This document shows, piece by piece, positions 6,353 through 58,025 of a DNA stretch of 64,000 bases (its first letter is position 1; every line of letters begins with the position of its first letter). The stretch lies in contig JAJZDA010000001.1 of assembly GCA_021851525.1 (NCBI GenBank), positions 3,493 through 67,492 of the forward strand. The letters run 5' to 3'. Under the pieces are notes generated by a model that saw nothing but the letters and a program-made list of their open reading frames with translations, did no database searches and was not told where the DNA came from. The translations under genes were made by a program, and so were the position numbers. The stretch comes from Actinomycetes bacterium (GTDB taxonomy: Bacteria > Actinomycetota > Thermoleophilia > Solirubrobacterales > Solirubrobacteraceae).

Positions 6353-6428
<76 letters not shown>

Positions 6429-6495: not shown

Positions 6496-6581
6496 TGGCT
6501 ACCACATTTGGCTACCAAGTGAATTGGTGGAGATTCACGCAGAAATCCGGTTTATTGGGTCCATAACCCGAAGGTTGTAGG
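6496..6581 (+). repeat. TGGCTACCA x2 followed by a degenerate att core copy (relic attR-like junction)
   Basis: TGGCTACCA at 6496-6504 and 6509-6517; cataacccgaaggttgtagg (6562-6581) matches the tRNA core at 18/20. Confidence 0.75.
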
Positions 6582-8098: not shown

Positions 8099-8917
8099 AT
8101 GTCGTTACCCGGCAACTCTCTGCATCCTGGCCTGCTCGCGGTTGCTCAGCGCGCCGGCTTGACGAAACGCCTGATGGACCGGTGGTCGTCGGCGCGGCCG
8201 AGTAACTTTGACGCAATGGCCGCGACGCTCGACATCGGTCCTCTTGACGAAGCTACCGGTCTTCTGAGCCACCATCCGATCGGCGTCTCCACGGGCATCT
8301 TTGCCGGAGACCGGGGCAGGTGGCCTCGGTTGGTCGATGATGCTTGCGGCATCTCGAGTTACGTCGTTGAGCTATCGGCGCTCTCCGGGGGCGAGCTTCC
8401 CGGACTCCTGTCGTACCTCGGCTCCGGGCCGGCGCTTCCGTTCCGCTACCTGAGCGTCCACGCTCCAGCGAAGAACTTCGATGAGCGGGTCGCAGTCGAC
8501 CAGCTATGTGAACTGCCGCTTGCGGTGCGTTCTGTGGTTCTCCACCCAGATGTCATCGTCGATGTCGCCCTCTGGAAGCGCCTCAAAACACGAGCTGTGA
8601 TCGAGAACATGGACGACCGCAAGAAAGGTGGCCGTACCGTCGACGAGCTCAAGCCGATTTTCAAGGCGCTTCCCGAAGCGGGTTTTTGCTTTGACGTGGC
8701 TCACGCTTGGTCGCTGGACCCAACGATGGAGCTCGCGCACTCGCTGCTTGACCAATTCAGGGCGAGTCTTCGACAAGTGCATCTCAGCTCGCTCGATAGC
8801 GCCGGTCACCACATTCCGCTTCGGCGGGAAGACGCGCAGCTTTTCACCGATGTGCTGAGCCGCTGCACGGACGTTCCGTGGATTCTTGAGGCGATGCCGC
8901 CCGCCGGTTGGGTGTAG
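8099..8917 (+). CDS. Xylose-isomerase-like / AP endonuclease 2 TIM-barrel metalloenzyme
   Basis: SVHAP, VVLHP, IENMD, FDVAHA, VHLS and GHH metal-ligand pattern; true start may be ATG 8216. Confidence 0.78.
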   Translation: MSLPGNSLHPGLLAVAQRAGLTKRLMDRWSSARPSNFDAMAATLDIGPLDEATGLLSHHPIGVSTGIFAGDRGRWPRLVDDACGISSYVVELSALSGGELPGLLSYLGSGPALPFRYLSVHAPAKNFDERVAVDQLCELPLAVRSVVLHPDVIVDVALWKRLKTRAVIENMDDRKKGGRTVDELKPIFKALPEAGFCFDVAHAWSLDPTMELAHSLLDQFRASLRQVHLSSLDSAGHHIPLRREDAQLFTDVLSRCTDVPWILEAMPPAGWV

Positions 8918-8966
8918 CGCCGGAGCACCGGGTGCTTCCCGCAGCCATTCCAAGCGCGAGCTCGGC

Positions 8967-9956
8967 GTGACCGAAGCGACCGGCGTCGCTGGCCTCGAGG
9001 TTGTCTCGGGAATCAGGTTCGCGAACGTCGAAGAATGCAGGGCCCGAACAGAGGAACGCCTTCAGCAACGTCGGCTGCGCTTCGCCTCGGAGCTGTTCGA
9101 ACCGGATTCGGCCGTTGTTTTGACCGGCTCATGGGGCCGCCGAGAGGTGACCAGCGACAGCGACGACGACTACATGGTGCTGTTCGCCGGCAAACGGCGC
9201 CGCGACGCGCGACCGACCGTGAGCGAAGCAGCGGACATCCTCGAAGCGAAAGCACCGGGGCGGGAGGCCATCTTCGGAAAGCAGGTCTGGCTTCAGGACC
9301 TTCTCCGCAAGATCGGCCGCGATCGGGACACCAACGCCAACCTGACTCGACGGATGCTGCTGCTCCTTGAATCTGTCTCTGTCAGCGGGATCGACGTACA
9401 CCAGGCGGCAAGGAGAGCGGTGCTCGAGGAATATCTGAGGGCGCACAAGGACTACCGCCCACCCCGGTTCCTGCTCAACGACCTGGTCCGCTATTGGCGC
9501 ACAATCGCGGTGGACTTCGAGAGCAAGATGCGAGACCGCAAAGGGCAAGGCTGGGGGCTGCGGAACGCGAAGCTGCGGCTGTCTCGCAAGGCTCTGTTCG
9601 CAGGCGGCCTGCTTCCGGTACTGGAGTGCTATCGCGTCCCGGCGGACGCGATGCTCGAGCACCTCGACACTGCGCTCGTCGCGCCACCGCTGGACAGAAT
9701 TGCCGACGCGTTCATGACACACCGTGCGATCGATCCGGCCGTCCGTACGATAGCCGCGTACGACGAGTTCCTCGGGATCCTCAACGACCCGGACAAGCGC
9801 AGAGAGCTGGACATGCTGGAGATAGAGCGCAGCGATTCGTCGCAGCTGTTCGCACGGGTCGCGGAACTGGGTGAGGACTTCGAAGCAGGTCTCCTTGCCC
9901 TCCTGTTCAACGACTCGGACCTGCAGCGGTGGGTCCGCGACTACCTGATCTTCTGA
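8967..9956 (+). CDS. Pol-beta superfamily nucleotidyltransferase (DUF294/GlnD-like fold)
   Basis: VVLTGSWGRREVTSDSDDDYMVL (GS...DxD), followed by helical RFLLNDLVRYWRT and WGLRNAKL; start set at GTG 8967. Confidence 0.8.
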   Translation: MTEATGVAGLEVVSGIRFANVEECRARTEERLQQRRLRFASELFEPDSAVVLTGSWGRREVTSDSDDDYMVLFAGKRRRDARPTVSEAADILEAKAPGREAIFGKQVWLQDLLRKIGRDRDTNANLTRRMLLLLESVSVSGIDVHQAARRAVLEEYLRAHKDYRPPRFLLNDLVRYWRTIAVDFESKMRDRKGQGWGLRNAKLRLSRKALFAGGLLPVLECYRVPADAMLEHLDTALVAPPLDRIADAFMTHRAIDPAVRTIAAYDEFLGILNDPDKRRELDMLEIERSDSSQLFARVAELGEDFEAGLLALLFNDSDLQRWVRDYLIF

Positions 9957-10324: not shown

Positions 10325-11869
10325 ATGAGCGCGACCACAACAGGCGAGGTCATTTCGGTCGGCACATATGCCGAGCGACTCAACACCGCCCTGAGCCATG
10401 CCGGCACAGCGGTGGTCGAGGGCGAGGTGCAGGAGGTAAAGACATTCGGTAAGGGCGTCTTGTCGTTCACCTTGACGGACGGGGAGGCGCGCCTGCCATG
10501 TAAGTGGCTTCCGTGGGAGAACGGCAGGCGCCCGTTGACCCACCGGCCCCGCGACGGAGACCAGGTCCGGGTGCGCATCAGCCACGCGAGCTGGTATGCC
10601 GCAGGCGGGCGCGCTGAGGTCGTCATCAGCGACGTTCGATTGACCGGCGAAGGCGAATTGCTGGCGGCTCGCGCCCAACTGCTCGCGCGCCTCAGTGCCG
10701 AGGGTTTGACCAACCCTGCCGATTTGCCGCCCTTGCCGCCCTTTCCCCGCGCCGTTGGACTCATCGCAGGGGTCGAATCCGAGGCCTACAACGACGTTAT
10801 CCGCGGACTCCGCGACCGGTTCCCAGCTGTGCCAGTCGTCTCCTGCTGCTGCCGGATCCAGGGCGCCGGCGCGCCCCAGGCGATGATCGCAGCGCTGGGT
10901 GCGCTCAGTCGACAGGCCGAGGTCGATGTCATCGTTATCGCGCGCGGCGGCGGGTCGGTCCAGGACCTGGCCGCCTTCGACGACGAGTCGCTGTGCCGAG
11001 CTATACGCGCTGTAGATATCCCGGTCGTAACCGCGGTTGGGCATACCGCCAACAACCCGGTCTGCAACCACATCACCCATCACGCGTTTGTGCCCCGCCA
11101 CGCCGCAGACATTGTGGTCCGGGACCGCCGCGACCTGCTGCGCGATGTCGGAGACGCCTCGGACGCGATGACGCGCGCGGTCGCCGATATCCAGCAGCGC
11201 GCCAGCGCGTTAGCGGTGGCGCCGGGGCTAAACGTCTTGGGACGGTTGGCGGCTTTCAGGACGACAGTTCTTCAGAGCGCGAGCATCATCTCCGCGTCAG
11301 CCGACGTTCACGTGCGAGACGGCGAGGTTCTGATTAAGCGGTTCGACGCTGGCGCTGCTCAACGCGCCGCGTCTCTACGAGCAGACGTTCACAGAGCGCA
11401 GCGGGACTTAGACGCGTTCGCGTCCGCGACATCGGCAGCGCGGAGGCTCGCAACCCGCCCCGTCGAGGATCTGGGTCGGCTCGCCGAAGCTCTGGCTTCG
11501 TCCTCCGCTCGAATGTTGAAGAGCCGCCGTGACAACCTGACCCGCGCCATCGAGAGAATGACCGCTGAGCGCGTGCGCGCCGCCAACCGTCACATCGCTG
11601 TCGCGAGAGCAAACGTCAATGCCTCGGCGACGGCCATCGGCCGAAGCGTCGGGCGGCATGAGCAGCAGGCCAAGAACGACGCAGACGCGCTATCAGCTGT
11701 TCTCGCCGCCGCCGACTTTCGCCGGCGCGGCTGGCTGCTGGCAACGGATGCAAGCGGACACGGGATCACACGCATCGACGACGTCCAAGCCGGCGACCCT
11801 GTGCACCTGCACTTAGAGGGCGGCGAGGCCTCAGCCGTCATATCGGAAACTCAAACCGACCGAAAGTGA
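10325..11869 (+). CDS. xseA: Exodeoxyribonuclease VII large subunit-like protein (variant)
   Basis: N-terminal OB fold (VEGEVQE...FTLTD), FPRAVGLI, IQGAGA, VIVIARGGGSVQDLAAFDDE, PVVTAVGH, long helical C-terminal region; start ATG 10325 (or GTG 10262). Confidence 0.88.
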   Translation: MSATTTGEVISVGTYAERLNTALSHAGTAVVEGEVQEVKTFGKGVLSFTLTDGEARLPCKWLPWENGRRPLTHRPRDGDQVRVRISHASWYAAGGRAEVVISDVRLTGEGELLAARAQLLARLSAEGLTNPADLPPLPPFPRAVGLIAGVESEAYNDVIRGLRDRFPAVPVVSCCCRIQGAGAPQAMIAALGALSRQAEVDVIVIARGGGSVQDLAAFDDESLCRAIRAVDIPVVTAVGHTANNPVCNHITHHAFVPRHAADIVVRDRRDLLRDVGDASDAMTRAVADIQQRASALAVAPGLNVLGRLAAFRTTVLQSASIISASADVHVRDGEVLIKRFDAGAAQRAASLRADVHRAQRDLDAFASATSAARRLATRPVEDLGRLAEALASSSARMLKSRRDNLTRAIERMTAERVRAANRHIAVARANVNASATAIGRSVGRHEQQAKNDADALSAVLAAADFRRRGWLLATDASGHGITRIDDVQAGDPVHLHLEGGEASAVISETQTDRK

Positions 11870-11875
11870 GACCTG

Positions 11876-12262
11876 ATGGAAGGCTCAACCCCTACTGACA
11901 TCACCTTCAGCGACGCGTATGACGAGCTGAAATCGATCACCGAAGAACTGAACGGCTCAGATACCGTTCCTCCGGAGCGCCTGCTCGAGCTGCTCAGGCG
12001 CGGGAAAGGGCTTGAGCAGGTTCTTCGCCAGCATCTTGATGATGTTGAGCAACAGGTCCGCAGTATTGAAGCCGGAGATGGTCTGGTGCGGTATCGGATC
12101 GTCACCGGCGCGACGAGGACGAACGACGACCTCCTGGTTTCGAATGACGAGGAACCGAGTTCGGCCACGGCGCCATCGCTCGCTCAGACGATCCCCGTCG
12201 ATGCGAGCGACTTCGTTCCCTCTTCTGCCCGCGACCTCAAAGGCGACGACATTCCTTTCTGA
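11876..12262 (+). CDS. xseB: Exodeoxyribonuclease VII small subunit-like protein with extended acidic tail ending DDIPF
   Basis: TFSDAYDELKSITEELN...LLELLRRGKGL...LDDVEQQV coiled-coil pattern; 6 bp after xseA. Confidence 0.8.
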   Translation: MEGSTPTDITFSDAYDELKSITEELNGSDTVPPERLLELLRRGKGLEQVLRQHLDDVEQQVRSIEAGDGLVRYRIVTGATRTNDDLLVSNDEEPSSATAPSLAQTIPVDASDFVPSSARDLKGDDIPF

Positions 12263-12433: not shown

Positions 12434-14806
12434 CTATACGCGAGCGCGAATTGGAGCAGCGAGAGGGGTGAGGACCGCAAAACGAGCGTCGGCACGAACA
12501 CGGTCGTACAGGTCCGGGACATTCTTGGCTTCGATCGTCATGATCAGCGTGAAGTCGAGTTCGCCTGCGGTCGCCTTGGGAATAAGCTGGCCTTCCGCTC
12601 GCTCGTAGTAGGTCAACCAGATCGACGGCAGGTGAAGCGTCGTGGCATTGACGCCGTCCTCATGTCGCGTCACCGTCTCCCACTTCCCCTCGTCGCGCAG
12701 CGTGTGTTCGCTGCGGATGGCCTTGCCTGAACGGGTCTTCGGATTAAGGCTGAGCTCCCAGCCTTGGTTGGCGAGGTTTTGGATGAGCGCTCCGTCGGTA
12801 CGAAGGTCAACGTCGACGGGCTTCTGCCCGCTGTTCTTCAGGCTCATGGTGTAGGCGGCGGCATTGGGTCGCATGACGACCTCGAGCCCGGCCTGTGTGT
12901 ACTCGACCGCATCTTGCGGATCGGTGGGTGAGATGAACGAGACGGTCCAGCGGGCCTTCACCCGTCCGGAGATGCCCGCGAGTGGATAGGGCATCGGGTA
13001 GGCACGAGTCATGCCGCGCTCGATTGTGTCCTGCACGACGACAGTGATGGCGCCCGGCTCGCACTCGAGGAGCGGCCGGTAGTCAATGCGGAGTCGTCCG
13101 TATCCCACGGCCGGGAGATCATGTTTCTTGGGCCGGACTGCGAAGTGGGCAGCCATCCCGCGTGCGAGATTGGGCGAGAACGCGACAGTTGCGAGCAGCG
13201 TCGCCACGCCACGCGCCGCGGTTGGGGAGGCAAAACTCGTTCCCATGTTGACCTGGTAGCCCCCGCCGACGTCTGCACCGACGAAGTGCAGGGCGTCGCT
13301 GCCACCGAATGCGACACCGAGCGGGGCGACCCGAAGCCCGGGTCGCCCGGGACCCACACAGGAGTAAGCGGCGCGTGTGGGCTCGTCGGGGGTGATGTCA
13401 TCACACGCTCCGACCGCCAGCACGTTCACGCCGTCAGACGGCGCCATGACGCGATCGAGGCCAAGCGGGGAGATCGTCGGTTCGCCCTCGTTGCCGACCG
13501 CCACGGTGACGGTGAGCCCGAGGTCTACTACCAGTTGGTCGATCTCGGCGGTGAACCGGTCGATGTCGGCGTCGTCATCGATGGCGGAATCCTCCGGGCC
13601 GAGACTGAGGTTGACTATCTGCCAGCGGTTGGGATCGGCACGGAGGGTCGCGATGATCTGGTCCAGCACCCAATACGGCTCGTCATCGGCGTCCACGTGT
13701 GCCGGCGCAGGCAAGACGCGGAAGTGATCTACGTAGGCCGGCGGCGGCGACAGCGGCCGTCCCGCCTCAATGTGGCCGTAGAGCAAAGCGCTTGAGACAA
13801 GCGTGCCGTGTGCCACGAGCTCGTCATCGCGTGGGGCGCTTGTGAGATCGCCCTCGCTGACAAAAGGGGCGAGCAACGGATGGCTCGAGTCGACGCCGCC
13901 GTCGAAAACGGCTATGCGATGTTCTGGCGGTGGCAGGTCGGCGGGCGGCTCAGGATCCGCGCCACCGAAATCGACGCTGCGGATCCGCTTCTCAGGGATA
14001 CGTCGCATTTGTGGCATTGGACGCAGTCCACGAAGTGGGTTGAAGCGCTCCAAAGCATCGAGGTGACGCCGCTGCAAGCGGATTGGGACGAACATCAGCG
14101 GTCCGACCTGTCGCAGGTAGTTGCGACGGAATTCGCCGCCGAGGCGCTCGACGAGCTGTTCGAGCTTGGCCGTCACGCGTTCGGCGGCAGCGGCAGATGC
14201 CACACCGTTGGCGTCGATCGCCGGATGCAGAACAGCCTCCCAGACCAGCTCTGCGTCGGGATCCTCCTCCCCGTTCTTCTGCTTAGCGTCGCGGCTGCGT
14301 CGACGCTTGACGATCCGCTCCGCTCCGGGCAACAGGAAGCTCTCGAAGCGGACGAACTCGTCGGCGATTGGAGTGGGCGGGGTGATGTCACCCAGCAGCG
14401 CGCTCATGCGATTGAGCGAATCATCGGTTGCGGAGAGCAGCAGCGTCTTGGTGGGTACGTCTTCCTCGTCGGCGCCGCTGCGTCGGCGCAATGTCCCGCG
14501 AGATGGAAGCGTGCCGACCATGACCAGGTCTGCATCAGCCCGCAACACTCGCGGATGGTGTGTCGCGGCAAGGTAATTGGGGTGCAGCTTTGCTTGGATG
14601 ACGACGCGGTCACCGCGCAAGGCGTCCGGGAGGTGAGCAACGTCACTGCGGATGCCTTGGATCTGCTCTGCGAGCCGCGGTCGCACCTCGGAATAGCTGA
14701 ACGGATGGTATTTGTCACCGTGCCCTTGCGCACGGGTCTGGTCATCGCCGAACGAGGCGCCGGCGTTGAGGATCGGGCGCGAAGGAGGTGTGTCGGGGTT
14801 TGCCAT
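12434..14806 (-). CDS. ietS: S8 (subtilase) family serine protease, IetS-like
   Basis: IAVFDGG (Asp), HGTLVSS (His), AVGNEG (oxyanion Asn), MGTSFASP (Ser); 12 bp downstream of the AAA ATPase. Confidence 0.9.
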   Translation of the reverse strand: MANPDTPPSRPILNAGASFGDDQTRAQGHGDKYHPFSYSEVRPRLAEQIQGIRSDVAHLPDALRGDRVVIQAKLHPNYLAATHHPRVLRADADLVMVGTLPSRGTLRRRSGADEEDVPTKTLLLSATDDSLNRMSALLGDITPPTPIADEFVRFESFLLPGAERIVKRRRSRDAKQKNGEEDPDAELVWEAVLHPAIDANGVASAAAAERVTAKLEQLVERLGGEFRRNYLRQVGPLMFVPIRLQRRHLDALERFNPLRGLRPMPQMRRIPEKRIRSVDFGGADPEPPADLPPPEHRIAVFDGGVDSSHPLLAPFVSEGDLTSAPRDDELVAHGTLVSSALLYGHIEAGRPLSPPPAYVDHFRVLPAPAHVDADDEPYWVLDQIIATLRADPNRWQIVNLSLGPEDSAIDDDADIDRFTAEIDQLVVDLGLTVTVAVGNEGEPTISPLGLDRVMAPSDGVNVLAVGACDDITPDEPTRAAYSCVGPGRPGLRVAPLGVAFGGSDALHFVGADVGGGYQVNMGTSFASPTAARGVATLLATVAFSPNLARGMAAHFAVRPKKHDLPAVGYGRLRIDYRPLLECEPGAITVVVQDTIERGMTRAYPMPYPLAGISGRVKARWTVSFISPTDPQDAVEYTQAGLEVVMRPNAAAYTMSLKNSGQKPVDVDLRTDGALIQNLANQGWELSLNPKTRSGKAIRSEHTLRDEGKWETVTRHEDGVNATTLHLPSIWLTYYERAEGQLIPKATAGELDFTLIMTIEAKNVPDLYDRVRADARFAVLTPLAAPIRARV

Positions 14807-14818
14807 CAGATGCCTCCG

Positions 14819-15958
14819 CTACACGCTCGCGGCGCCAGCCTCGGCCAGGCGTCGCGCCGCCGTGTGTGAGCAATCCAACAGCTCGCCGATCGCTCGCGTG
14901 GTGAGGCCCCCGTTGTCGCGCGCGGCCGCCGCGAAGCGTGCGCGCGCGCGACGATCAGGCTGCGCGCCGTTCGGCGCGGCGGCGGTGAGTAGTGCACGAT
15001 CGAGCGGCAGATCGTCGAGCACAGCCCGACGCGCTCCGCGATGGACCAAGCCGGTCAGGCTCGCTCCGGTGGCGCCCTCGGTGACCGCGACTATTGCATC
15101 GATAGTTCCCGAGGACGGCGCTAGCGATAGGTCTGAGAGCAGCTGCCGCAGGATCCGGACGCGGGCTTCCTCGTCGGGCAGCCCCAGCCGCACGTGAACC
15201 TCAAATCGCCGCTCAAGGGCAGGGTCAAGCAAATCCAGATGGTTGGTTGCGGCGATCAGCGGTGCCTGGTCGGGCCACCGGTCGAGCTCGACGAGCAACG
15301 TGCTAACGAAGCGCTTGAACTCGCCGACGTCGTAGACGTCGTCGCGTCTCTTGGCGAGGGCGTCGATCTCGTCCAACCCGAGGACGGCGCCTTGTTCACG
15401 GGCCGCCGTGAACGCCGCCGAGAGGCTGCGTGCACTCTCACCGAGCAGGCTGCCGATGACGTCGGTGGGCTCGATGAGAATGAGTGGTCGCCCTACCCGT
15501 GCTGCTATCGACCGCATGGTCATCGACTTGCCGACACCCGGCGGGCCGGACAGCAGCACAGTGCGCGTGGGATGTAACCCCGATGCCAGCAGTCGCTCAC
15601 GTTGGTCGTACTCGCGGACGATGCCGTCGATGACTGTGCGATCGGTTGCCGTCAGGACGGGTGAAGGTGCGTCAGCCGAATCGCTTGGAGCGGATGCCGT
15701 CGTCGCGCTGCGCGTCATCGAGCTGTGTCCACGACCTGGAACAGGACGTGCAGCCTCCTCGGCAAACAAGAGCGAAAGAGCCGCGCGACCGCCTTCACTG
15801 AGGCGTACGTTGCGCCGACCGGCCTGGGTCGTGACGAGTTTCCGTATGCGGCCAGGGACCTCGTCCGCCCGGTCGCGCAGAATCATTCTCACCACGTCGA
15901 CGAGGATCGCCTCAGCTGGCTGAAGTTCTACCGGCTTGGAAACTTTGGTGACGGGCAT
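14819..15958 (-). CDS. ietA: AAA+ ATPase, IetA-like, with C-terminal HTH
   Basis: LLSGPPGVGKS Walker A, LGLDEID Walker B, AATNHLDLLDPALERRF SRH; start trimmed to ATG 15958. Confidence 0.9.
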   Translation of the reverse strand: MPVTKVSKPVELQPAEAILVDVVRMILRDRADEVPGRIRKLVTTQAGRRNVRLSEGGRAALSLLFAEEAARPVPGRGHSSMTRSATTASAPSDSADAPSPVLTATDRTVIDGIVREYDQRERLLASGLHPTRTVLLSGPPGVGKSMTMRSIAARVGRPLILIEPTDVIGSLLGESARSLSAAFTAAREQGAVLGLDEIDALAKRRDDVYDVGEFKRFVSTLLVELDRWPDQAPLIAATNHLDLLDPALERRFEVHVRLGLPDEEARVRILRQLLSDLSLAPSSGTIDAIVAVTEGATGASLTGLVHRGARRAVLDDLPLDRALLTAAAPNGAQPDRRARARFAAAARDNGGLTTRAIGELLDCSHTAARRLAEAGAASV

Positions 15959-16182
15959 CCGAGAAACGTACCACGAGTAGCGGCCGGAAGCACGCGCGAT
16001 TCTGCGACTGTTGGAAGGAGAGTCGTAGACCATGAGCAGACCGTTCCAGATGGGGTGTGTCCAGCAGAAGTTTGGGCGCCTAGCGGAGGGCGCGGCCGAG
16101 CCGAGTATCGCTTTTGCGTCTTCCGGGGCCACCCCGCCCGCGAGTGCAATGGCGACGACGCATCTCGGCGACCGGCGCGCCG

Positions 16183-17586
16183 TCAGCCTGTGTTGCTGCT
16201 CGCCAGCTCGTCCTCTTGTTGCACGGACTCGTCTTGCCATGGAGGAGTGATGGGACCGTTGGTCGCGTCGGGTGATGCAGTTTCAGGTTCGACGTGAAGC
16301 TTCGGTGCAGGCGCTTGCCAGGCTTTGAGATTCTGGACGATGTCTCGGTAGAAGCCGATGGTCTGGGCTGCTGTCTCGCGGACGAACGAGCCTTCATCCC
16401 GCCCGCGTTTCTGACCCATTGGCTTGGTCAGCGTGATCACGAACGCTCGTGGCTCTCGCTTCGGATCGCTGACGTGGTAGAGAGCGGCAGGGTTGTCGCG
16501 CACGTCGCCGAGCTTGGCGACGGTCGTGGTTCTGGCGTTGGGGAACGCAGCTTCGATACGCAGGTCGTCCGACGCGTCCCGTAGCTGCCGCAGCAGCCAG
16601 TTGAAGCGTGCTTTCGCGCGGCCCTCCCGCGGAGCATCGACAGCGACTGATGTCGACGTCTGTCGAGTCTTGAGGTTGGTACGGATCTCGACCGGGCCGG
16701 CCGCATCAGGGATTCTGAGGCTCGAGAACAACTCGCCGGTGTCGACAAGCGATTTCACGAGCTCGTCGAGACGGGCTGGCGTGGTCTGGGTCCTTGGCCG
16801 CAGCACCGTGACCTTGGCGCCGAGCTCTTGCGCCAAGCTGAGCGAGAGGTAGTTCGTGAACTGCTCCCATCGCTCAGCAACGTCGCGAACCGGAGCATCA
16901 CCAACTCGCAGGGTTGCCTCGCGTGCAGCCTTGCGGACACCGACCCAATTCTCGCCCATGTCCTCGAAGCCGACAGCACCGGCAGCTTCGCTGCTGAGGT
17001 AGTGGATCAGCTCCCGCAGCACCCACTCCTGGTCAGGGTCGGAGATGCCGTGATAGCGCTGCTGAACCACTGCCTCTGTTAGGACCTTCCACCATGAGAA
17101 GTGCCACAGGTTCAGCCCTCTAAGCTTGCGTCGATCGATCGCGACCGGTGACTCAGAAGAGTCAGTGGTTATCTGTGTGGAGATCGTGAGGACGCCATCG
17201 AAGCCGTTCGCGCGCGCGATGTCGAGATAGCTCGTCACCTGGTCGTCCTTCAAACGCGCCGCACCGGTCTTGACCTCGACAAGACATGTCCAGCTCTTAT
17301 TCCCGCGCCGGCACACGATCGCGCCGTCGGGGATCACCGTCTTACCGGCAGCATCCTTGAATCGGACTTCCGCGAAGGTCTCGATCACGGGAGCTTTCGG
17401 CGCCCCGAGCTCCTTCAGCAGCGCATAGCCGAACTCGGGAACGCCATGCATGACAGCCAGTAAACAGGAGGTGGCTCGCTTCTCCTGCTCGAGCTGGCTT
17501 CGCACGCCGAACGTCGGAATCAGCCGCGCGTGACGCCACCCGTCCGGCGCCGCCCCAGCCGCACCATTGGTCGCTCCCGTCGCCAT
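16183..17586 (-). CDS. PD-(D/E)XK restriction-endonuclease-like protein
   Basis: IPDGAIV...CLVEVKTG motif in the N-terminal third; WRHARLIP...EKRATS start. Confidence 0.7.
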   Translation of the reverse strand: MATGATNGAAGAAPDGWRHARLIPTFGVRSQLEQEKRATSCLLAVMHGVPEFGYALLKELGAPKAPVIETFAEVRFKDAAGKTVIPDGAIVCRRGNKSWTCLVEVKTGAARLKDDQVTSYLDIARANGFDGVLTISTQITTDSSESPVAIDRRKLRGLNLWHFSWWKVLTEAVVQQRYHGISDPDQEWVLRELIHYLSSEAAGAVGFEDMGENWVGVRKAAREATLRVGDAPVRDVAERWEQFTNYLSLSLAQELGAKVTVLRPRTQTTPARLDELVKSLVDTGELFSSLRIPDAAGPVEIRTNLKTRQTSTSVAVDAPREGRAKARFNWLLRQLRDASDDLRIEAAFPNARTTTVAKLGDVRDNPAALYHVSDPKREPRAFVITLTKPMGQKRGRDEGSFVRETAAQTIGFYRDIVQNLKAWQAPAPKLHVEPETASPDATNGPITPPWQDESVQQEDELASSNTG

Positions 17587-18242
17587 AGGGCGACCAGCCT
17601 ACCCGGCGCTGCGGCACGTGTTCAAGATCCCGCCCAGCGACGGCGCGCGATCGCTTCCATGATGGGCGCTGCCTCGCGCGCGCGATTGGAATGGCGACGA
17701 CAAGTAGATGCGAACCTTGGTCGCCAGACTGAGCCGTCGGGTCTAGAACCTGAAGGTTGTAGTCGTTGGACTGCTCTTCTGATACCGCCCCAGTAATGCC
17801 GAAATGTCGTGCCCGGGCGAGGATGTCGCTTGCCGTGCTGACTCCCTCGGCTTCCTTACCGCTGGGGTGGTGAGCTGCTGGCGCACCGTCCCGCGCGGTT
17901 CAAGCCGTTGTTGACTACCGGCGCCGGCAGTCGGGCCGGTGTGGCGGGCCTGACCATCGGCCCACCCGCCGCCAACGGCCTCGCCGCACTTGATCTCAAC
18001 CGAGACGATCGTCGAAGGGGCTGATGACGGCAGCCGCACGAACGTCTTCGGTGCGGCAAGGCGTTCATTTGGAGCCGGCACGCGCGAATATATCTCCGCG
18101 TATGCGTATCGCACCGAGCGTCGCTGCCTGCCCGCGCCGTTCGATTCACAGGGTGTCCGCCCGACACACGGGGACGAGGTCGAAGATTAAGTCTGGAACT
18201 ATCAGGATACGGCTGGCACTATCTGTTATATTCTGATCCCGT

Positions 18243-37427: not shown

Positions 37428-40037
37428 TTAGCGCTCCCAGCCGGGCGAGCGATCGTGTTCTTCTCTGAGACCCAAGTCGCGGTCTGCGTGGCTGGCTATC
37501 TCACGTCGTGCCGCAAGCGGCACTGCAATCGACGGCAGGTCCGGCTCACCCCGCCCAACCCGCTCAGCGAGTCGCTCCATCGGCTCGAGCTCGCCGTCCT
37601 GCAGCACCTCCTCGCTGACATGGATGTCGGTGCGCTCGCGGGCGCGGGTGAGCGCGACGTAGGTTCCCTCGGCGGTGGCGTGGTCGGCGACGATCAGGTG
37701 CGTGGTGTCCGTGGTCACGCCTTGCGCGGGCACGGGGTGTTGCACGTAGGCGAGGCGCAGGTGGGCCCGTTCGGCCTGCTGGCGGTCCATCGCGATGGTG
37801 CGCCCGTCGGCGAGGTTCATTGACAGCCGTCCGGCACGCGGGTCGATCTCGGTGATCGTGGCGGTGGTGCCGTTCCTGACCGGGCCGTGGGGGAGGGTGA
37901 CGGTGTGGCGGATCTGGACCTCGTCGCCGGGGCGCAACTGGTAGGGGCGCCCGGGGAGCTTGAGCGTGTTGTAGCCGAGCTGCCGGTCCCTAGCTCGCAG
38001 CGCTTGCGCGTGGGCGTTGAGCTCATCCAGATGCTCGTTGGAGGTCTGGGTGATCACGAGCGTGCGCTTGCCGTAGGTGCGGTCGCGGTGGGCGGCCTCG
38101 AGCGCGGCGCGCTCCGCCGACGCCTGGTCGGGTGCTTGGTGCAGCCGCCCGCGGGCGGCGTAGCCCTCGAGTGCCTGTTGGTGCTCTCCGTCGCGGCAGC
38201 GGCGCTGGTCACGCCGGTCGTCGGGATCGCGCGCTCTGAGGTTCGTGGTGAGCTCGGCCCGTGACTCCTGGCGGTCGGCCAGCTGCTCGAGCCGTGACCA
38301 CAGGCCAGCGGCGCCGATCGGCTTTGACTGCTGCGGGTCGCCGACGATCAGCAGGTGCGCCCAGTTCTCCTCGACCGTGTCGAGCAGGTTCTGCTGCTCG
38401 CGGGTCGAAGCGAGCGCGGCCTCGTCATGGATCACGGTCGTACGGGAATCGATGTCGAGTTGGCCGGTCGCGATCGCGTGCTGTAGCGCGACGGTCGAGT
38501 AGGCGGGGGTCTCGACGCCAACGGCGGCGAGGTCGGCGGCGAGCCGCTCGGCGGCGACGGCGGCGGTGCTGGTGACGATCACGCGCCGCCCGTCGGTCTG
38601 GTGAGCGAGGGCGACCGCCTGCAGCAGCGTGCTCTTGCCGGTGCCGGCCTGCCCCTCGATCATCACCACCTGGCGGTCGCCGCAGGCGAGCTCGAGCGCC
38701 TCGCGCTGCTCCCCTGAGAGCCTGCCGCCCTGTCGCTTGAGCCGTTCGTCGATGGTCGTGGCGGCCTGGTCGATGAGGTGGCCGGGGATCGGATGCAGTC
38801 GCTCGCGGGTCAGCGACTCGAAGGTCCCGACGGTCAGGCGCTCGAGCGCGCGGTGCCAGCCGGTGGTGTTGCTGCCGTCGGCCAGCCGGATGATCGCGCG
38901 CTCGTCGCGCGCCTGGGCGAGCGCGCCGAGCGCCCGCTCGATCGGCGCCCCCGCCGCCAGCTCGAGCGCGACCGCCCGCGCCTCGCGGTCGCTGAAGGTC
39001 GCGTCGAACTCCGTCAGCCCACGCAGCAGCTCCCGCCGCTCCGGCGGCTCGGGAGCGGCTCTGCTGAGGTTGCGCAGGCTGTTGAGCTCGTGGGTCGTGA
39101 AGCCGGCGCCGGTGGCGGCGGAGTGCCACTCGCGATCGAGGTCGGCGTTAGTGGCAGGCTGTTTGCCCCGCCGGGTGGCGAGCGCCGCGCGGCGCTCGGC
39201 GGCGGCGCCGATTCGCTCGCCACCGGTCTGCTTAAGGCTCTGCCGGATCGCCTCCTGCACCTGATGGTGGCGGCTTGACCACGCGTCGATCAGCTCCTGC
39301 GGCACCCCGGCGATCTCGAAGTAGCGCCCGCCGCGTCCAGTTCCGCGCGTGATCTCGAAACCCAGTGCCGTCAGCTCCCGCGCCAGTTCGGTGCGGTAGG
39401 CGGCGCCCAGCTCGCGCCGGTGAACGAGCCAGGAGCGCGAGTCGATTGCTACGACCCGCTGGTCGTCGCGCACTGCACCGTGCAGCAGCACGTGCGAGTG
39501 CAGCTGCGGATCGGGCACACGCTCACCCACCGCCCGTGCCGTGGTGTGCCGCCAGCTCGTGGCGATGAGCTCCTTGGCCTTGGCGTGGACGACGGTCCCG
39601 CCGTCCGCCCGGTGGCGGACCATCGGCACCTGGCCTGTGGAGTAGCGCAGTGCGCGGTCGATCGCCTGCTCGTGCGCCGCCTCGATCCTGATCCGCAGCT
39701 CGGTGTCGGCGACCGCCCAGATCGCGCTAACAGACTTGGGCGCCGAGAACGTCGCGTCGATCGCCGCCACCGCCTCGCCGGTGGCACCTGTGCGACGCAG
39801 CTGCTCGCCGGTCATTGGATGGCGCACGGCCATCAGTTCGCGCAGCGCCTTGCCGCCGACCGGCCTGAGCGGATCGCAGCCTAGTTGCTGCGCGCCGCTG
39901 ACCCACCGGCCCGGTGCCTCGACCCGCTCCCCGTCCTTGAGGTAGTAGTCGCCGAGCTCCGCCGCCGTAGTCTTGCCCTCGAGGTAGTCGGCATAGCCGG
40001 CTGCCATCCGTCCGGTGACCTTCGCGACGGTCAGCAT
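37428..40037 (-). CDS. mobF: MobF (TrwC-like) relaxase-helicase
   Basis: MLTVAKV...YADY...GDYY, TFSAPKSVS, DPQLHSH (HUH), EGQAGTGKS, YVALTRAR; start ATG 40037. Confidence 0.93.
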   Translation of the reverse strand: MLTVAKVTGRMAAGYADYLEGKTTAAELGDYYLKDGERVEAPGRWVSGAQQLGCDPLRPVGGKALRELMAVRHPMTGEQLRRTGATGEAVAAIDATFSAPKSVSAIWAVADTELRIRIEAAHEQAIDRALRYSTGQVPMVRHRADGGTVVHAKAKELIATSWRHTTARAVGERVPDPQLHSHVLLHGAVRDDQRVVAIDSRSWLVHRRELGAAYRTELARELTALGFEITRGTGRGGRYFEIAGVPQELIDAWSSRHHQVQEAIRQSLKQTGGERIGAAAERRAALATRRGKQPATNADLDREWHSAATGAGFTTHELNSLRNLSRAAPEPPERRELLRGLTEFDATFSDREARAVALELAAGAPIERALGALAQARDERAIIRLADGSNTTGWHRALERLTVGTFESLTRERLHPIPGHLIDQAATTIDERLKRQGGRLSGEQREALELACGDRQVVMIEGQAGTGKSTLLQAVALAHQTDGRRVIVTSTAAVAAERLAADLAAVGVETPAYSTVALQHAIATGQLDIDSRTTVIHDEAALASTREQQNLLDTVEENWAHLLIVGDPQQSKPIGAAGLWSRLEQLADRQESRAELTTNLRARDPDDRRDQRRCRDGEHQQALEGYAARGRLHQAPDQASAERAALEAAHRDRTYGKRTLVITQTSNEHLDELNAHAQALRARDRQLGYNTLKLPGRPYQLRPGDEVQIRHTVTLPHGPVRNGTTATITEIDPRAGRLSMNLADGRTIAMDRQQAERAHLRLAYVQHPVPAQGVTTDTTHLIVADHATAEGTYVALTRARERTDIHVSEEVLQDGELEPMERLAERVGRGEPDLPSIAVPLAARREIASHADRDLGLREEHDRSPGWER

Positions 40038-40202
40038 GCCCTGGCCTCGCCGTCCGAAGCCGTCCGCCGGTTGCCTGCGCTGACCAGTCCGAAGGTCGCC
40101 TGAGCCGGACAACTCTCGAGCCGTCCCAGCCCCCTGCCCAAGAGGACCACACTGTACGCACAGGGAGTGCTTGCCCCAGAGCGTCCCCAAGCGTCCCGCC
40201 GC

Positions 40203-41732
40203 TCAGTGGGCATGAACGACCGCCTCGAAGGGGGATTCACGCGCGTGGATGGGCGTGAGCGTCACCAGCTCCCAGCGGACGCCATCGAGGTGCAGGGCGC
40301 GCCCGACGGGGATGTTGGCGACCTCACCGGGGGAGAGGACGCGGGTGCGTTGGGTCGAGTGGCTGTAGGAGCGCTGTGAGCCGAACCAGTGGTCCGGGAT
40401 CTGCGCCTTGGTCTCGGTGACGACCCTTCGGTCGTACTCGCCGAGCGCGGTCGAGATCGTCTCGAGCGTCCGCTGGTCGGCGACGCCGGGAAGGACCAGC
40501 TTGGTGCCGAACAGGGTCAGAAAGCCGTCGGCGGCCGCGCCCCATCGGCCGCGGGCCTGGCTGAGGTCCTGGAGCACCGCGAGCAGCAGCAGGCCCTGCC
40601 CGCCGCCTTCGGACGCGATCTGGGGGAGCTCGGCGATGGGGGCGACGTTGGCGACCTCGTCGAGCGCGAACAGCACCCGGTGGCCGACAAGGTCGCCTGC
40701 GGCGTGGGCCTGGTAGGTCGCGCGGCGGATCTCGGCGAGCAGCCCGCACACCAGCGGCGCAGCCATGCGCTGGCTCTCCGCCGGCGCATGGATGTAGACG
40801 GTGTCGCCAGAGGCGACGAACTGCCGCGCATCGAAGTTCTGATCCTCGGCGGCATCGAGCGCCGCCTGCGAGGTGTAGGCCTCGAGCGCGTCGGCAGTGG
40901 CGGAGAAGATCGACGAGCGCTCCCGCGCCTCGGTGTTCGCGATGCCGCTGAGCACATCCAGCGCGAGCGGCGTCGTCCCGTGATCGCGCAGCCGGTTGAG
41001 CGGGCCATCGATGTCATGGCTGGTGACCCAGCCGATCACGATGCGCATCGGCGCCTCCGTGACCGCGGCCGCGTGCAGGACCGAGGCAAGCAGTGCCTGC
41101 GCTCGCTTGGCCCAATGGTTGGCCTCGGTGACGCCGGCACCGACGGCGGCGCCGTCGACCATCGCGCGTGCCATCAGCAGCGCACCGTCCCAGTCCTTGG
41201 AACAGGAGAGGGGAGACCAGCGGAGTGTCGCGACCCCCGCCATCTCCTGCGCGTGACCGGTCGGATCGAACTGCCACACGCGCCCGTACGCTGCCCGCGA
41301 GCTCATCGTCGCGCGCAGCACGTCCGGCTTGGTCGAGGTCGAGACGACGGGCCCGGGGTAGTCGAGCAGCGTCGGGATGATCACGCTCGTGGTCTTGCCG
41401 GACTGCGACGGGCCGACCACCAGCACCGCCCGCCCCGGCCGGGACCAGCGCGACCGCCCGGCCTCGCCGCGACCGAGGTAGACGGCGGACGGGGGCAAGG
41501 CCGGCGAGTCGTCCGGCGGGCCAGCGGGCCCGCCCGACAGGAATGCGCGCAGCCGGGGCAGGAGATGGAAGCGGCGGTTGAGCCGCACACACCCGTAGAA
41601 CAGCCCCGCCCAAAGCAGCAGGTGAAAGACGGTAGATGAGACCATCGCGGCAGCGAACAGGACCCCACCGACCGTCTTCTTGGGACCCAGTCCGGGAGCG
41701 GGTTGTTGGTGTGAGGGACCCCAGTCGTTCAT
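40203..41732 (-). CDS. Type IV coupling protein (VirD4/TraG-like)
   Basis: N-terminal TM helix, VVGPSQSGKT Walker A, STSTKPD, FALDEVAN Walker B, VLQDLSQ. Confidence 0.88.
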   Translation of the reverse strand: MNDWGPSHQQPAPGLGPKKTVGGVLFAAAMVSSTVFHLLLWAGLFYGCVRLNRRFHLLPRLRAFLSGGPAGPPDDSPALPPSAVYLGRGEAGRSRWSRPGRAVLVVGPSQSGKTTSVIIPTLLDYPGPVVSTSTKPDVLRATMSSRAAYGRVWQFDPTGHAQEMAGVATLRWSPLSCSKDWDGALLMARAMVDGAAVGAGVTEANHWAKRAQALLASVLHAAAVTEAPMRIVIGWVTSHDIDGPLNRLRDHGTTPLALDVLSGIANTEARERSSIFSATADALEAYTSQAALDAAEDQNFDARQFVASGDTVYIHAPAESQRMAAPLVCGLLAEIRRATYQAHAAGDLVGHRVLFALDEVANVAPIAELPQIASEGGGQGLLLLAVLQDLSQARGRWGAAADGFLTLFGTKLVLPGVADQRTLETISTALGEYDRRVVTETKAQIPDHWFGSQRSYSHSTQRTRVLSPGEVANIPVGRALHLDGVRWELVTLTPIHARESPFEAVVHAH

Positions 41733-56482: not shown

Positions 56483-57826
56483 TCACGGGTCCGATTCGTC
56501 GTCTGCGAGGAGTGCGCTCGTAGCGCCGGTCGATCGCAGCGCATCCGTGAACTTGGCGGCCAGCTCGGTTGCGGGCCGGGCGTGCAGGTAGCGGCTGGTT
56601 GTCGTGAGCTGCGCATGGCCCATCGCTTCCTTGACGCTCACTAGGTCGATGCCACCAGCGACCAGCATGGAGCCGTAGCTGTGACGGAGGTCGTGCCAGC
56701 GCAGCGGCCGCAGGTCGGCGGCGTCACGAGCACGCTTGAAGCGGCGGCGCAGCGCTGAAGCGTCGAGTCGTCGGCCGACGAGGTTGCAGAAGACGAGATC
56801 CTCCGGGTGGGTGAAGTGGCGTCGCTGCGTGAGGCGCTCGAGCGCGGCGGCGGCGTCGTCCCCCATGGGGACTCGGCGAATCTGGCCTGACTTGGTGGTG
56901 GTCTCGAGTCCGTCTGAGATAGCGCGGCTGATCGTCAACGCCGAGCCCTCCCAGTCGACGTCGACCCAGCGCAGCGCCAAGAGTTCGCCCATGCGAACCC
57001 CCGCATATGCCGAAACGCGTACAGCTTCGGCATCGCGCTCGTCCTCCTCCACCTCAGCGTCGAGTCGTTCGTACCCATACGGCCTGTGGAGCCCGCGTGC
57101 GAGCGCGCGCGCGAGGATCTCGATCTCGTCGTAGGTGTAGAACACAAGAACACCCGGCGCCGCTGCGCGACGTCGATCGGCGAACTTCGCTGGATTCGTC
57201 GGAAGGCTGAAAGCGCCAGGGCGCATCCCGTAGTTGAAGACAGCGCAGATGATCTCGCGATAGTGGTTGACGGTGCGAGGTGTGACTCCGGCCTTTGCGA
57301 CGGTGCGGAGCACCTGCTCGATCTCGGCTGTGGTCACCTTGGTGGCGGGTTTGTCTCCGAGCGCGCCCATGATGTAGCCCGCAGTCTTGCGGCGGCCGCG
57401 GCCGTGAGGAGTTCCAGGTTCGGCGAGCAGAGAGCGGTGGGAACGCATGGTGGTCGGCTTTGCGCCCTTCACGGTCTCAAGCCAGTGCAGATACGCGTGT
57501 GCGACTTCGCGAAAAGTCGCGCCGTTGATTCGCCGTTCTTCGGCAACGCGTTCGGCATCTTGTTTCTCAGCCACGTAGCCGGCGATGATCTCCGCCGCCC
57601 GGACGTGCGCAGCACGCGAGTCGAAGTACCCAGGCTGGACCCGACCACTCCGGGCTTTGAATGATCCGGTCTCGGCATCGGGCTCGAGCCAGGCGCGGCC
57701 AACCCGTCGCATGACCTGGCGTCCCGCGTAGCGGAACTTGACCTCATAGAAGACGCGACCGTTCTGCTCACGGGGGATGAGATTGAACACCGGAAGTGTC
57801 ATATGAGATGTCATTGCGGTCACCAT
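56483..57826 (-). CDS. Tyrosine recombinase / integrase
   Basis: GVRMGELLALRW (R), TKSG (K), HDLRH (HxxR), MGH...TSRY (H, Y); start ATG 57826 or 57802. Confidence 0.95.
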   Translation of the reverse strand: MVTAMTSHMTLPVFNLIPREQNGRVFYEVKFRYAGRQVMRRVGRAWLEPDAETGSFKARSGRVQPGYFDSRAAHVRAAEIIAGYVAEKQDAERVAEERRINGATFREVAHAYLHWLETVKGAKPTTMRSHRSLLAEPGTPHGRGRRKTAGYIMGALGDKPATKVTTAEIEQVLRTVAKAGVTPRTVNHYREIICAVFNYGMRPGAFSLPTNPAKFADRRRAAAPGVLVFYTYDEIEILARALARGLHRPYGYERLDAEVEEDERDAEAVRVSAYAGVRMGELLALRWVDVDWEGSALTISRAISDGLETTTKSGQIRRVPMGDDAAAALERLTQRRHFTHPEDLVFCNLVGRRLDASALRRRFKRARDAADLRPLRWHDLRHSYGSMLVAGGIDLVSVKEAMGHAQLTTTSRYLHARPATELAAKFTDALRSTGATSALLADDESDP

Positions 57827-57857
57827 ACCAGCCTCACTTGACACTTTGCCCCGAAGA

Positions 57858-57897
57858 TGGCTACCAACTCCGAGTTTGGCTACCAGATTGGCTACCA
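57858..57897 (+). repeat. TGGCTACCA x3, probable integrase arm-type binding sites
   Basis: Direct copies at 57858, 57877 and 57889, between the integrase start and the right att. Confidence 0.75.
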
Positions 57898-57979
57898 AAC
57901 AGGCATGAAATGGCCGCAATACCAGGTCATAACTCGACGAAACTTCACGCAAATTGCGGGAACTAGAAACCGGTGTTTC

Positions 57980-58025
57980 GGCTCATAACCCGAAGGTCGC
58001 AGGTTCGAATCCTGCCCCCGCTACT
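57980..58025 (+). repeat. Right att core (duplicated 3-prime half of tRNA-fMet)
   Basis: 46-bp identity to 6383-6428; tRNA 5-prime half absent. Confidence 0.95.

Follow-up and report, generated by a model that had tools for sequence, protein, structure and literature searches.

Why does a mobile element carry a two-gene ExoVII in which the large subunit, XseA, has lost aspartates described as invariant across its family, and in which the small subunit, XseB, ends like an SSB? The original prediction for this pair, which lies in a stretch of 64 kb that we analysed as a whole (the window), was that it is borne on an island and, given its substitutions and its tail, is no spare housekeeping ExoVII but perhaps a repurposed ssDNA sensor or scaffold, an altered-chemistry nuclease or a decoy.

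The xseAB pair and the element that carries it

XseA scored 169.4 bits against PF02601 (cutoff 35.9), 248.9 bits against the NCBIfam equivalog TIGR00237 (cutoff 180) and 33.4 bits against the OB-fold family PF13742, the last match spanning residues 11-104. Its best PDB match by phmmer was E. coli ExoVII (8TXR, E 1.4e-39), and the same structure was the top Foldseek match (E 6e-29) of an AF2 model with a mean pLDDT of 78.9 and values of 85-95 in the catalytic domain. The protein has the full ExoVII architecture of OB fold, catalytic domain, long stalk and C-terminal domain (Table 1), and by analogy with the E. coli enzyme the stalk presumably binds XseB (PMC3439923; PMC10835039). The xseB gene starts 6 nt downstream of xseA on the same strand, and its product reached 25.3 bits against PF02609 (cutoff 24), with the Pfam domain at residues 11-62, and 33.9 bits against TIGR01280, just under the cutoff of 35. 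A scan for promoters and terminators around the pair found none, and PADLOC-DB 2.0 assigned neither XseA nor XseB to any defence family.

The predicted island location was borne out. The pair sits in a 51.6-kb integrative element at tRNA-Met that is bounded by an exact 46-nt repeat and has the att repeats at a tRNA gene, the integrase, the relaxase and the coupling protein that mark an integrative mobilizable or conjugative element. It is placed between the PDC-M70 and IetAS genes, and the NCBIfam matches of the latter (the IetS/IetA-like genes) fall below cutoffs. The left arm of the element holds a NERD nuclease, PDC-M70B/A, xseAB, IetS/IetA and TmtA (Tiamat), together with a type III-like methylase and helicase, a UvrD-PD-(D/E)XK protein and an HNH protein. 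The GC3 of xseAB (0.67-0.76) is below that of the host flanks (0.88-0.95), and the cargo genes of the element have values of 0.67-0.83. A 467-aa gene at 16183-17586 was considered as a second integrase and the mark of a nested island, and was rejected, because it lacks any integrase signal and does not resemble the actual integrase of the element; a degenerate att-like copy lies next to this gene, at 17737-17763.

Table 1. Positions of the xseAB pair, its sequence features and the neighbouring element genes in the window
Feature	Position	Strand	Evidence
attL, 46-nt repeat over the 3' part of tRNA-Met (6353-6427)	6383..6428	+	repeat search
PDC-M70B / PDC-M70A candidate defence pair, immediately upstream of xseA	8099..9956	+	PADLOC E 2.9e-57, 6.5e-76
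Alternative in-frame GTG start for xseA	10262	+	database gene call (P0001) starts at 10325
xseA-like gene, N/N clade, 514 aa	10325..11869	+	PF02601 and TIGR00237 above cutoffs; 8TXR match; AF2 model
XseA N-terminal OB-fold, residues 1-106	10325..10642	+	PF13742; modelled beta strands 29-106, pLDDT about 90
XseA catalytic alpha/beta domain, about residues 140-265	10742..11119	+	8TXR alignment; invariant columns; pLDDT 85-95
D157 of XseA (E. coli D155)	10793-10795	+	8TXR alignment
RGGGS motif, R207 = E. coli R205	10943..10957	+	8TXR alignment
GHTANNPVCNH motif: H240 = E. coli H238, N243 = D241, N248 = D246	11039..11071	+	8TXR and clade alignments
Long helical stalk, residues 268-463, presumed XseB-binding	11126..11713	+	model helices 268-297 and 304-463; stalk of ~200 residues
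XseA C-terminal beta domain	11732..11866	+	second segment aligned to 8TXR 382-444; model strands 472-505
xseB-like gene, 128 aa	11876..12262	+	PF02609; 1VP7 E 0.005; homologues P0122-P0125
52-aa acidic XseB tail, presumed disordered	12104..12259	+	10 D/E, 3 K/R; beyond the Pfam domain; after the coiled coil (RYRIV)
IPVDASDF upstream tail motif, common to host SSB (IPIDTDDF)	12191..12214	+	tail comparison
DDIPF tip, then stop; same as the last five residues of host SSB	12245..12259	+	sequence
IetS-like S8 peptidase and IetA-like AAA ATPase, convergent with xseB	12434..16240	-	PADLOC IetS E 3e-32, IetA E 6e-56
TrwC relaxase (37428-40190) and type IV coupling protein (40203-41732)	37428..41732	-	TrwC and T4SS-DNA_transf matches
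Tyrosine integrase of the element	56483..57952	-	PF00589 E 8e-31
attR, exact second 46-nt copy	57980..58025	+	repeat search

A conserved but altered active site

The motif RGGG(x)nGHxxDxxxxD has been described as conserved or invariant across all XseA, and T. maritima ExoVII loses its activity when it carries a double D-to-A substitution (PMC2566859). In E. coli, the D155A, R205A, H238A and D241A substitutions abolish cleavage and leave DNA binding intact (PMC3439923). Alignment of the window XseA to 8TXR showed that D155, R205 and H238 are kept as D157, R207 and H240, and that D241 is replaced by N243, D246 by N248 and D250 by His; this confirmed the exchange of three aspartates for N, N and H, with RGGGS and the upstream Asp and His retained, as originally predicted. 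XseA therefore lacks both the D241 and the D246 of GHxxDxxxxD, and it retains three of the four residues that are essential in E. coli, the fourth, D241, being invariantly Asn in the clade. The accompanying claim that the Asp residues of this segment are needed for activity holds for D241 and, in E. coli, not for the other two: because D246A and D250A retain 60-80% activity there (PMC3439923), D241N is the sole change at a proven essential position.

Among 25 aligned, diverse XseA with a mean column identity of 46%, no substitution occurs at D157, Q179, R207-G210 (RGGG), H240, N243, P245 or V246, and conservation is at least 90% at C247 and N248; no other part of the protein is as well conserved as the former active-site segment. 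Cys247 is conserved in the clade and new relative to E. coli. The position two residues after the motif His (H+2) is acidic in most clade members, Ala in the window XseA and variable elsewhere, so that no obvious substitute carboxylate is apparent. A D/E at H+2 as a stand-in for D241 was accordingly not supported, since many members, the window XseA included, have A, Q, N, K, T or S there; the AF2 model places this segment in a loop or bridge, so a geometric argument is not possible.

The same motif recurs well beyond the window, in Patulibacter, Conexibacter and many MAGs of the Solirubrobacterales. A word-indexed protein search returned 667 relatives, and nearly all of the best 120, in which the motif was read, have GHTxNxPVCNH. 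More than 100 homologues share it and, together with the 25-sequence alignment, they show that the variant residues are conserved, as the original prediction required of anything other than decay. A scan of one genome per species gave 129 loci, nearly all labelled Solirubrobacterales, Patulibacter, Conexibacter or Thermoleophilaceae. Three XseA types occur in the order: (a) canonical, reading GHHTDRTLIDD; (b) N/N, with Asn at both the D241 and D246 positions; and (c) a sister type, GHTKDRPNCDH, with both Asp. One change suffices to explain the N/N state on a maximum-likelihood tree (SH-aLRT 81), and types (b) and (c) group apart from the canonical clade, with the deep fork not resolved. Within the tailed clade D241 was replaced at least twice, by N in clade (b) and by Q in two further loci (L070 and L074).

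Conexibacter sp. DBS9H8, which has a complete chromosome, Patulibacter minatonensis and three further genomes have type (b) as their sole XseA, while six genomes have type (c) alone, with strongly conserved synteny. We tallied the 201 genomes of the order with a completeness of at least 90%: the canonical form occurs alone in 112 and type (b) or (c) alone in 8, none has both and 81 have neither; in a locus-derived set, the two forms are co-resident in 3 of 16 genomes. The gene order around N/N xseA is conserved within Patulibacter and other groups; in some genomes the gene adjoins the neighbours that canonical xseA has elsewhere, and in two (G134 and G080) its GC3 is native. N/N XseA with tailed XseB is an order-wide lineage that is neither decaying nor island-specific, and the view that the substitutions and the tail are special to the island copy had to be given up: they are features of a lineage that is often the sole ExoVII, in conserved or orthologous synteny. 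From the near-exclusive distribution, the shared neighbours and the native codon composition, we infer that one ExoVII form has been replaced by the other, although the exclusivity could reflect lineage history and not functional equivalence, ExoVII being missing from 81 of the 201 genomes.

Replacement may also describe the host itself. Besides the window pair, no other XseA or XseB was found in the source genome, which is 90% complete, so that the remaining 10% could hold a canonical copy. Most relatives of the same genus carry canonical, tail-less xseAB; the conserved downstream neighbour of that pair is present in the source genome on contig C184 with no xseAB beside it, and another genome of the genus (G130) has the variant copy only. 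The element-borne copy has thus probably replaced a canonical xseAB that the host lost. It had been put forward that a host core XseA with the same substitutions and tail would count against a special role, and this is half the case: the core gene of the genus is canonical and tail-less, while in sister lineages the core gene is of the N/N, tailed form. A decoy poisoning host ExoVII, another role suggested for the pair, is unlikely, because the genome has no second ExoVII as a target and 0 of the 201 order genomes have both forms.

An SSB-like C-terminus on XseB

The tail of XseB is acidic and ends in DDIPF as predicted, and is shorter, at 52 aa, than the stated length of about 60. The final residues, KGDDIPF followed directly by the stop codon, form the terminal acidic run and I-P-F by which an SSB-Ct is recognized. 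Of all the open frames in the genome that reach 60 aa, 32,318 in number, only two, SSB and the window XseB, finish with an acidic-[IVL]PF tip. At the DNA level, a DDIPF-stop pattern occurs at 24 sites in 15 Solirubrobacterales genomes and the reversed control pattern at none; all 12 sites that could be checked by coordinates are the end of an SSB or XseB gene, and the remaining sites are inferred to be SSB. The DDIPF tip is confined to SSB and XseB and is not due to chance. An acidic-[IVL]PF tip ends XseB in 35 of 42 partners of N/N XseA, in 14 of 27 partners from the sister clade, in both D241Q variants (2/2) and in none of 14 canonical XseB, which are only 72-100 aa long; a full-library phmmer search gave 66 XseB-like clusters, 37 of them with the tip. 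Since the tail also accompanies the Asp-retaining type (c), the tail and the loss of Asp are independent innovations.

The likeness to SSB extends beyond the tip. The XseB tail resembles about 25 residues of the C-terminus of host SSB, in the pattern [IV]P.D..DF ... DD[DE]IPF (host SSB ...IPIDTDDFVSAPVAAGAADDDIPF versus window XseB ...IPVDASDFVPSSARDLKGDDIPF); the corresponding ends are ...SDIPIDTDDFVSAPVAAGAADDDIPF for the host SSB, encoded on contig C124, and ...QTIPVDASDFVPSSARDLKGDDIPF for the window XseB. Corresponding pairs were seen in other genomes, with VPVDNGDFQPAPVSGATGDDDIPF in SSB and RRVDNRDFQAAPISGGAKLGDDDIPF in XseB of genome G043, and GRFTPQ...RGPDDDIPF common to both proteins in genome G063. 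When the last six residues were left out, XseB tails from 15 genomes were still closer to the SSB tail encoded in the same genome than to those from other genomes (permutation p=0.0035), a within-genome similarity to which shared ancestry and composition may contribute. No PF00436 match to an SSB OB-fold protein was found within the 64-kb window; the carrier of the tail there is XseB. Our literature search found no report of an XseB fused to an SSB-Ct or to DDIPF, nor of any cellular protein other than SSB that bears the SSB C-terminal tail.

Possible functions and relation to known systems

Based on these findings, we propose that the element carries a mobile copy of a working ExoVII that is specific to Solirubrobacterales, with a remodelled active site and with tails that would link it to the SSB interaction network, a reading of the sequences to which we give about an even chance. 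The XseA-XseB complex would still perform the ExoVII job of binding and processing ssDNA ends, through a site that is probably metal-independent and centred on His240, where Asn243 would stand in for the Asp partner. The XseB tails, several to a complex, could mimic SSB C-termini and dock into the SSB-binding pockets of genome-maintenance proteins, which would bring the enzyme to SSB-organised ssDNA, and the element-borne copy would supply the host with its sole ExoVII. Given the loss of activity in D241A and the reported invariance of the motif, Asn at the D241 position may instead mean that nuclease activity is absent. The complex would then be a catalytically dead scaffold that binds ssDNA or its ends via the OB fold and presents SSB tails as a multivalent recruiting hub or sensor, which we hold to be possible but rather unlikely. 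The inactive E. coli D241A protein still binds DNA (PMC3439923), D241 has been lost at least twice in the tailed clade (to N, and to Q in L070 and L074), the acidic residue at H+2 is not conserved, and the stoichiometry of E. coli ExoVII, six XseB per XseA (PMC10835039), would make the tails highly multivalent; ExoVII is moreover dispensable in 40% of the order. However, the invariance of D157, Q179, RGGG, H240, N243, P245 and V246 is difficult to reconcile with a pure scaffold, the occurrence of the tail with Asp-keeping XseA of the sister clade separates it from the Asp loss, and the rarity of genomes with both this form and canonical ExoVII points to a shared cellular role.

The genomic setting of the closest relatives raises a further reading. 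The window XseA belongs to a five-member sub-clade (with P0002, P0003, P0004 and P0005) that is well supported (SH-aLRT 98), sister to and apart from the core Patulibacter genes. Three of its four usable contexts place the pair between differing defence systems or mobility genes: that of the window; that of P0002, between an RmuC-like gene and type III Wadjet JetA/C/D, with a transposase; and that of P0003, which adjoins SIR2-HerA, a PIN-Phd toxin-antitoxin pair and an integrase. The XseB proteins of the sub-clade are all tailed, with tails closer to Conexibacter-type SSB tails than to those of Patulibacter. This recurrent setting hints at a role beyond housekeeping, and the sub-clade could have been recruited as a two-gene anti-phage or element-protecting system, which would attack or shield SSB-coated ssDNA intermediates or compete for the docking sites of SSB tails with factors of the phage or the host. 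Such a defence or counter-defence module, which can overlap with a working ExoVII, seems unlikely to us: PADLOC matches neither protein, the contexts number only three or four and the fourth (P0006) is ambiguous and not clearly defensive, every distinguishing feature is also present in chromosomal core copies, ordinary repair genes also travel as island cargo, and a host with no other ExoVII fits simple replacement. A decaying spare copy with a chance C-terminal extension is extremely improbable. The foreign composition and mobile context of the pair would suit it, as would a related second copy with an in-frame TAG elsewhere (L023/G056), but both frames are intact, the tip occurs in just two of the genome's frames, and simple decay is excluded by the conservation of the motif and the tail, seen in over 100 XseA and in dozens of XseB clusters. 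We would go further only with considerable doubt, in suggesting that the N/N complex is no conventional nuclease but displays SSB tails multivalently on a stalk that binds ssDNA ends, being inactive or having a new His/Asn/Cys chemistry, and that its mobile copies are selected in defence islands and conjugative elements for intercepting or protecting SSB-coated phage or transfer ssDNA; if true, this would make it a new class of immunity or transfer factor that targets the SSB network.

These results challenge the published claims that the aspartates of GHxxDxxxxD are invariant in all XseA and that D241 is essential. The order keeps an XseA with Asn at both positions under clear constraint, often as the only ExoVII, and the N/N clade thereby offers a natural experiment on metal-independent ExoVII chemistry. 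An SSB tail that sits on a nuclease subunit and tracks the host SSB would imply a direct link of ExoVII to the SSB interaction hub, and the repeated defence-island setting of the sub-clade points to a link with phage or plasmid biology.

Compared with canonical ExoVII (E. coli XseA4-XseB24, 8TXR; T. maritima TM1768/TM1769), the window pair resembles it in the two-gene operon, the four-domain XseA with RGGG, GH and a long stalk, the kept D155, R205 and H238, and the helical hairpin core of XseB. It differs in the Asn at D241 and D246, the His at D250 and the new conserved Cys, in an XseA of 514 versus 456 aa with a longer stalk, and in an XseB of 128 versus about 80 aa, the excess coming from the SSB-like tail. 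Plasmid- and ICE-borne SSB genes may offer a parallel, as a lead only, in that a mobile transfer element here also carries a protein complex with an SSB-type tail, whereas the window encodes no SSB OB-fold protein. With the bacterial SSB tail itself, a disordered linker with an acidic tip (...DDDIPF), the XseB tail shares its acidic, low-complexity character, the free C-terminal DDIPF and the upstream [IV]P.D..DF, and it tracks the SSB of the same organisms; however, it is carried by a coiled-coil nuclease subunit and not by an SSB OB-fold tetramer, and up to six tails per XseA are expected versus four per SSB tetramer. Another close system is the sister clade GHTKDRPNCDH, which has the same Cys-containing motif frame, a tailed XseB in half its members and the position of sole ExoVII in several complete genomes, but which retains both Asp and is presumably an ordinary nuclease.

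Element boundaries and the neighbourhood of xseAB

The window carries a 51.6-kb integrative element, whose genes include an integrase, a TrwC relaxase and a T4CP, enclosed by the two tRNA-derived repeats listed in the table below, and defence cargo makes up the majority of its left arm. Two degenerate copies of the tRNA/att core also occur, which may be scars of previous or tandem integrations, and which may set off an 11-kb sub-island comprising PDC-M70, xseAB and the Iet genes. In the PDC-M70 match, the gene order is B then A, with PADLOC E-values of 3e-57 and 7e-76, respectively. The 467-aa protein adjoining IetA matches no Pfam family; its sole signals are faint PD-(D/E)XK-like similarities to VRR_NUC and Tox-REase-7, at E ~0.1.

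Features of the integrative element and the xseAB neighbourhood (window positions)
Feature	Position	Strand	Remark
Direct repeat, first copy	6383-6428		46 nt, exact; 3′ part of tRNA-Met; element boundary
Direct repeat, second copy	57980-58025		as first copy
Degenerate tRNA/att core, first copy	6555-6581		81% over 27 nt
Degenerate tRNA/att core, second copy	17737-17763		81% over 27 nt
PDC-M70 match	8099-9956		TIM-barrel and nucleotidyltransferase pair, upstream of xseAB; PADLOC candidate system
Codon of the XseA Cys	11063-11065		aligned to E. coli A245
467-aa protein	16183-17586	-	adjoins IetA

A second motif shared by SSB and XseB tails

The SSB tails of Solirubrobacterales, e.g. those of the host SSB (G000:C124, L129) and of loci L133 and L134, share, besides the DDDIPF tip, a further conserved motif some 15 residues upstream of it, [DS][IV]P[VAI]D..D[FY], and many XseB tails repeat this motif; to our knowledge, no function has been described for this motif. 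On contig C188 (L130), the host genome encodes another SSB-like OB domain, scoring 59 bits, within a 609-aa open frame whose product has no acidic IPF tip.

Unusual XseA relatives and active-site variation

The closest genome-collection locus to the window XseA, at 60% identity, is L023 on G056:C237. This second N/N copy contains an in-frame TAG, the mark of a pseudogene or else of a sequencing error. A metagenomic protein of 464 aa, P0176, combines PF02601 and PF02609 on a single chain with the C-terminus ...VPADTSDFEEAGVGQGKEDDIPF, and is an apparent XseA-XseB fusion, which could be real or an artefact of read-through or assembly.

The basal type-c XseA proteins L070 and L074 have the motif GHT[PK]QRPNCDH, in which D241 is swapped for Gln while D246 is retained; the 'essential' Asp has been lost here for a second time, independently, within the tailed lineage. 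The genome harbouring L070 (G049) additionally carries a canonical XseA copy. At the position aligned to E. coli A245, a Cys is near-invariant in the N/N and sister clades, being common to their respective motifs PVCNH and PNCDH, and could contribute to an altered active site, whereas canonical XseA lacks a Cys there.
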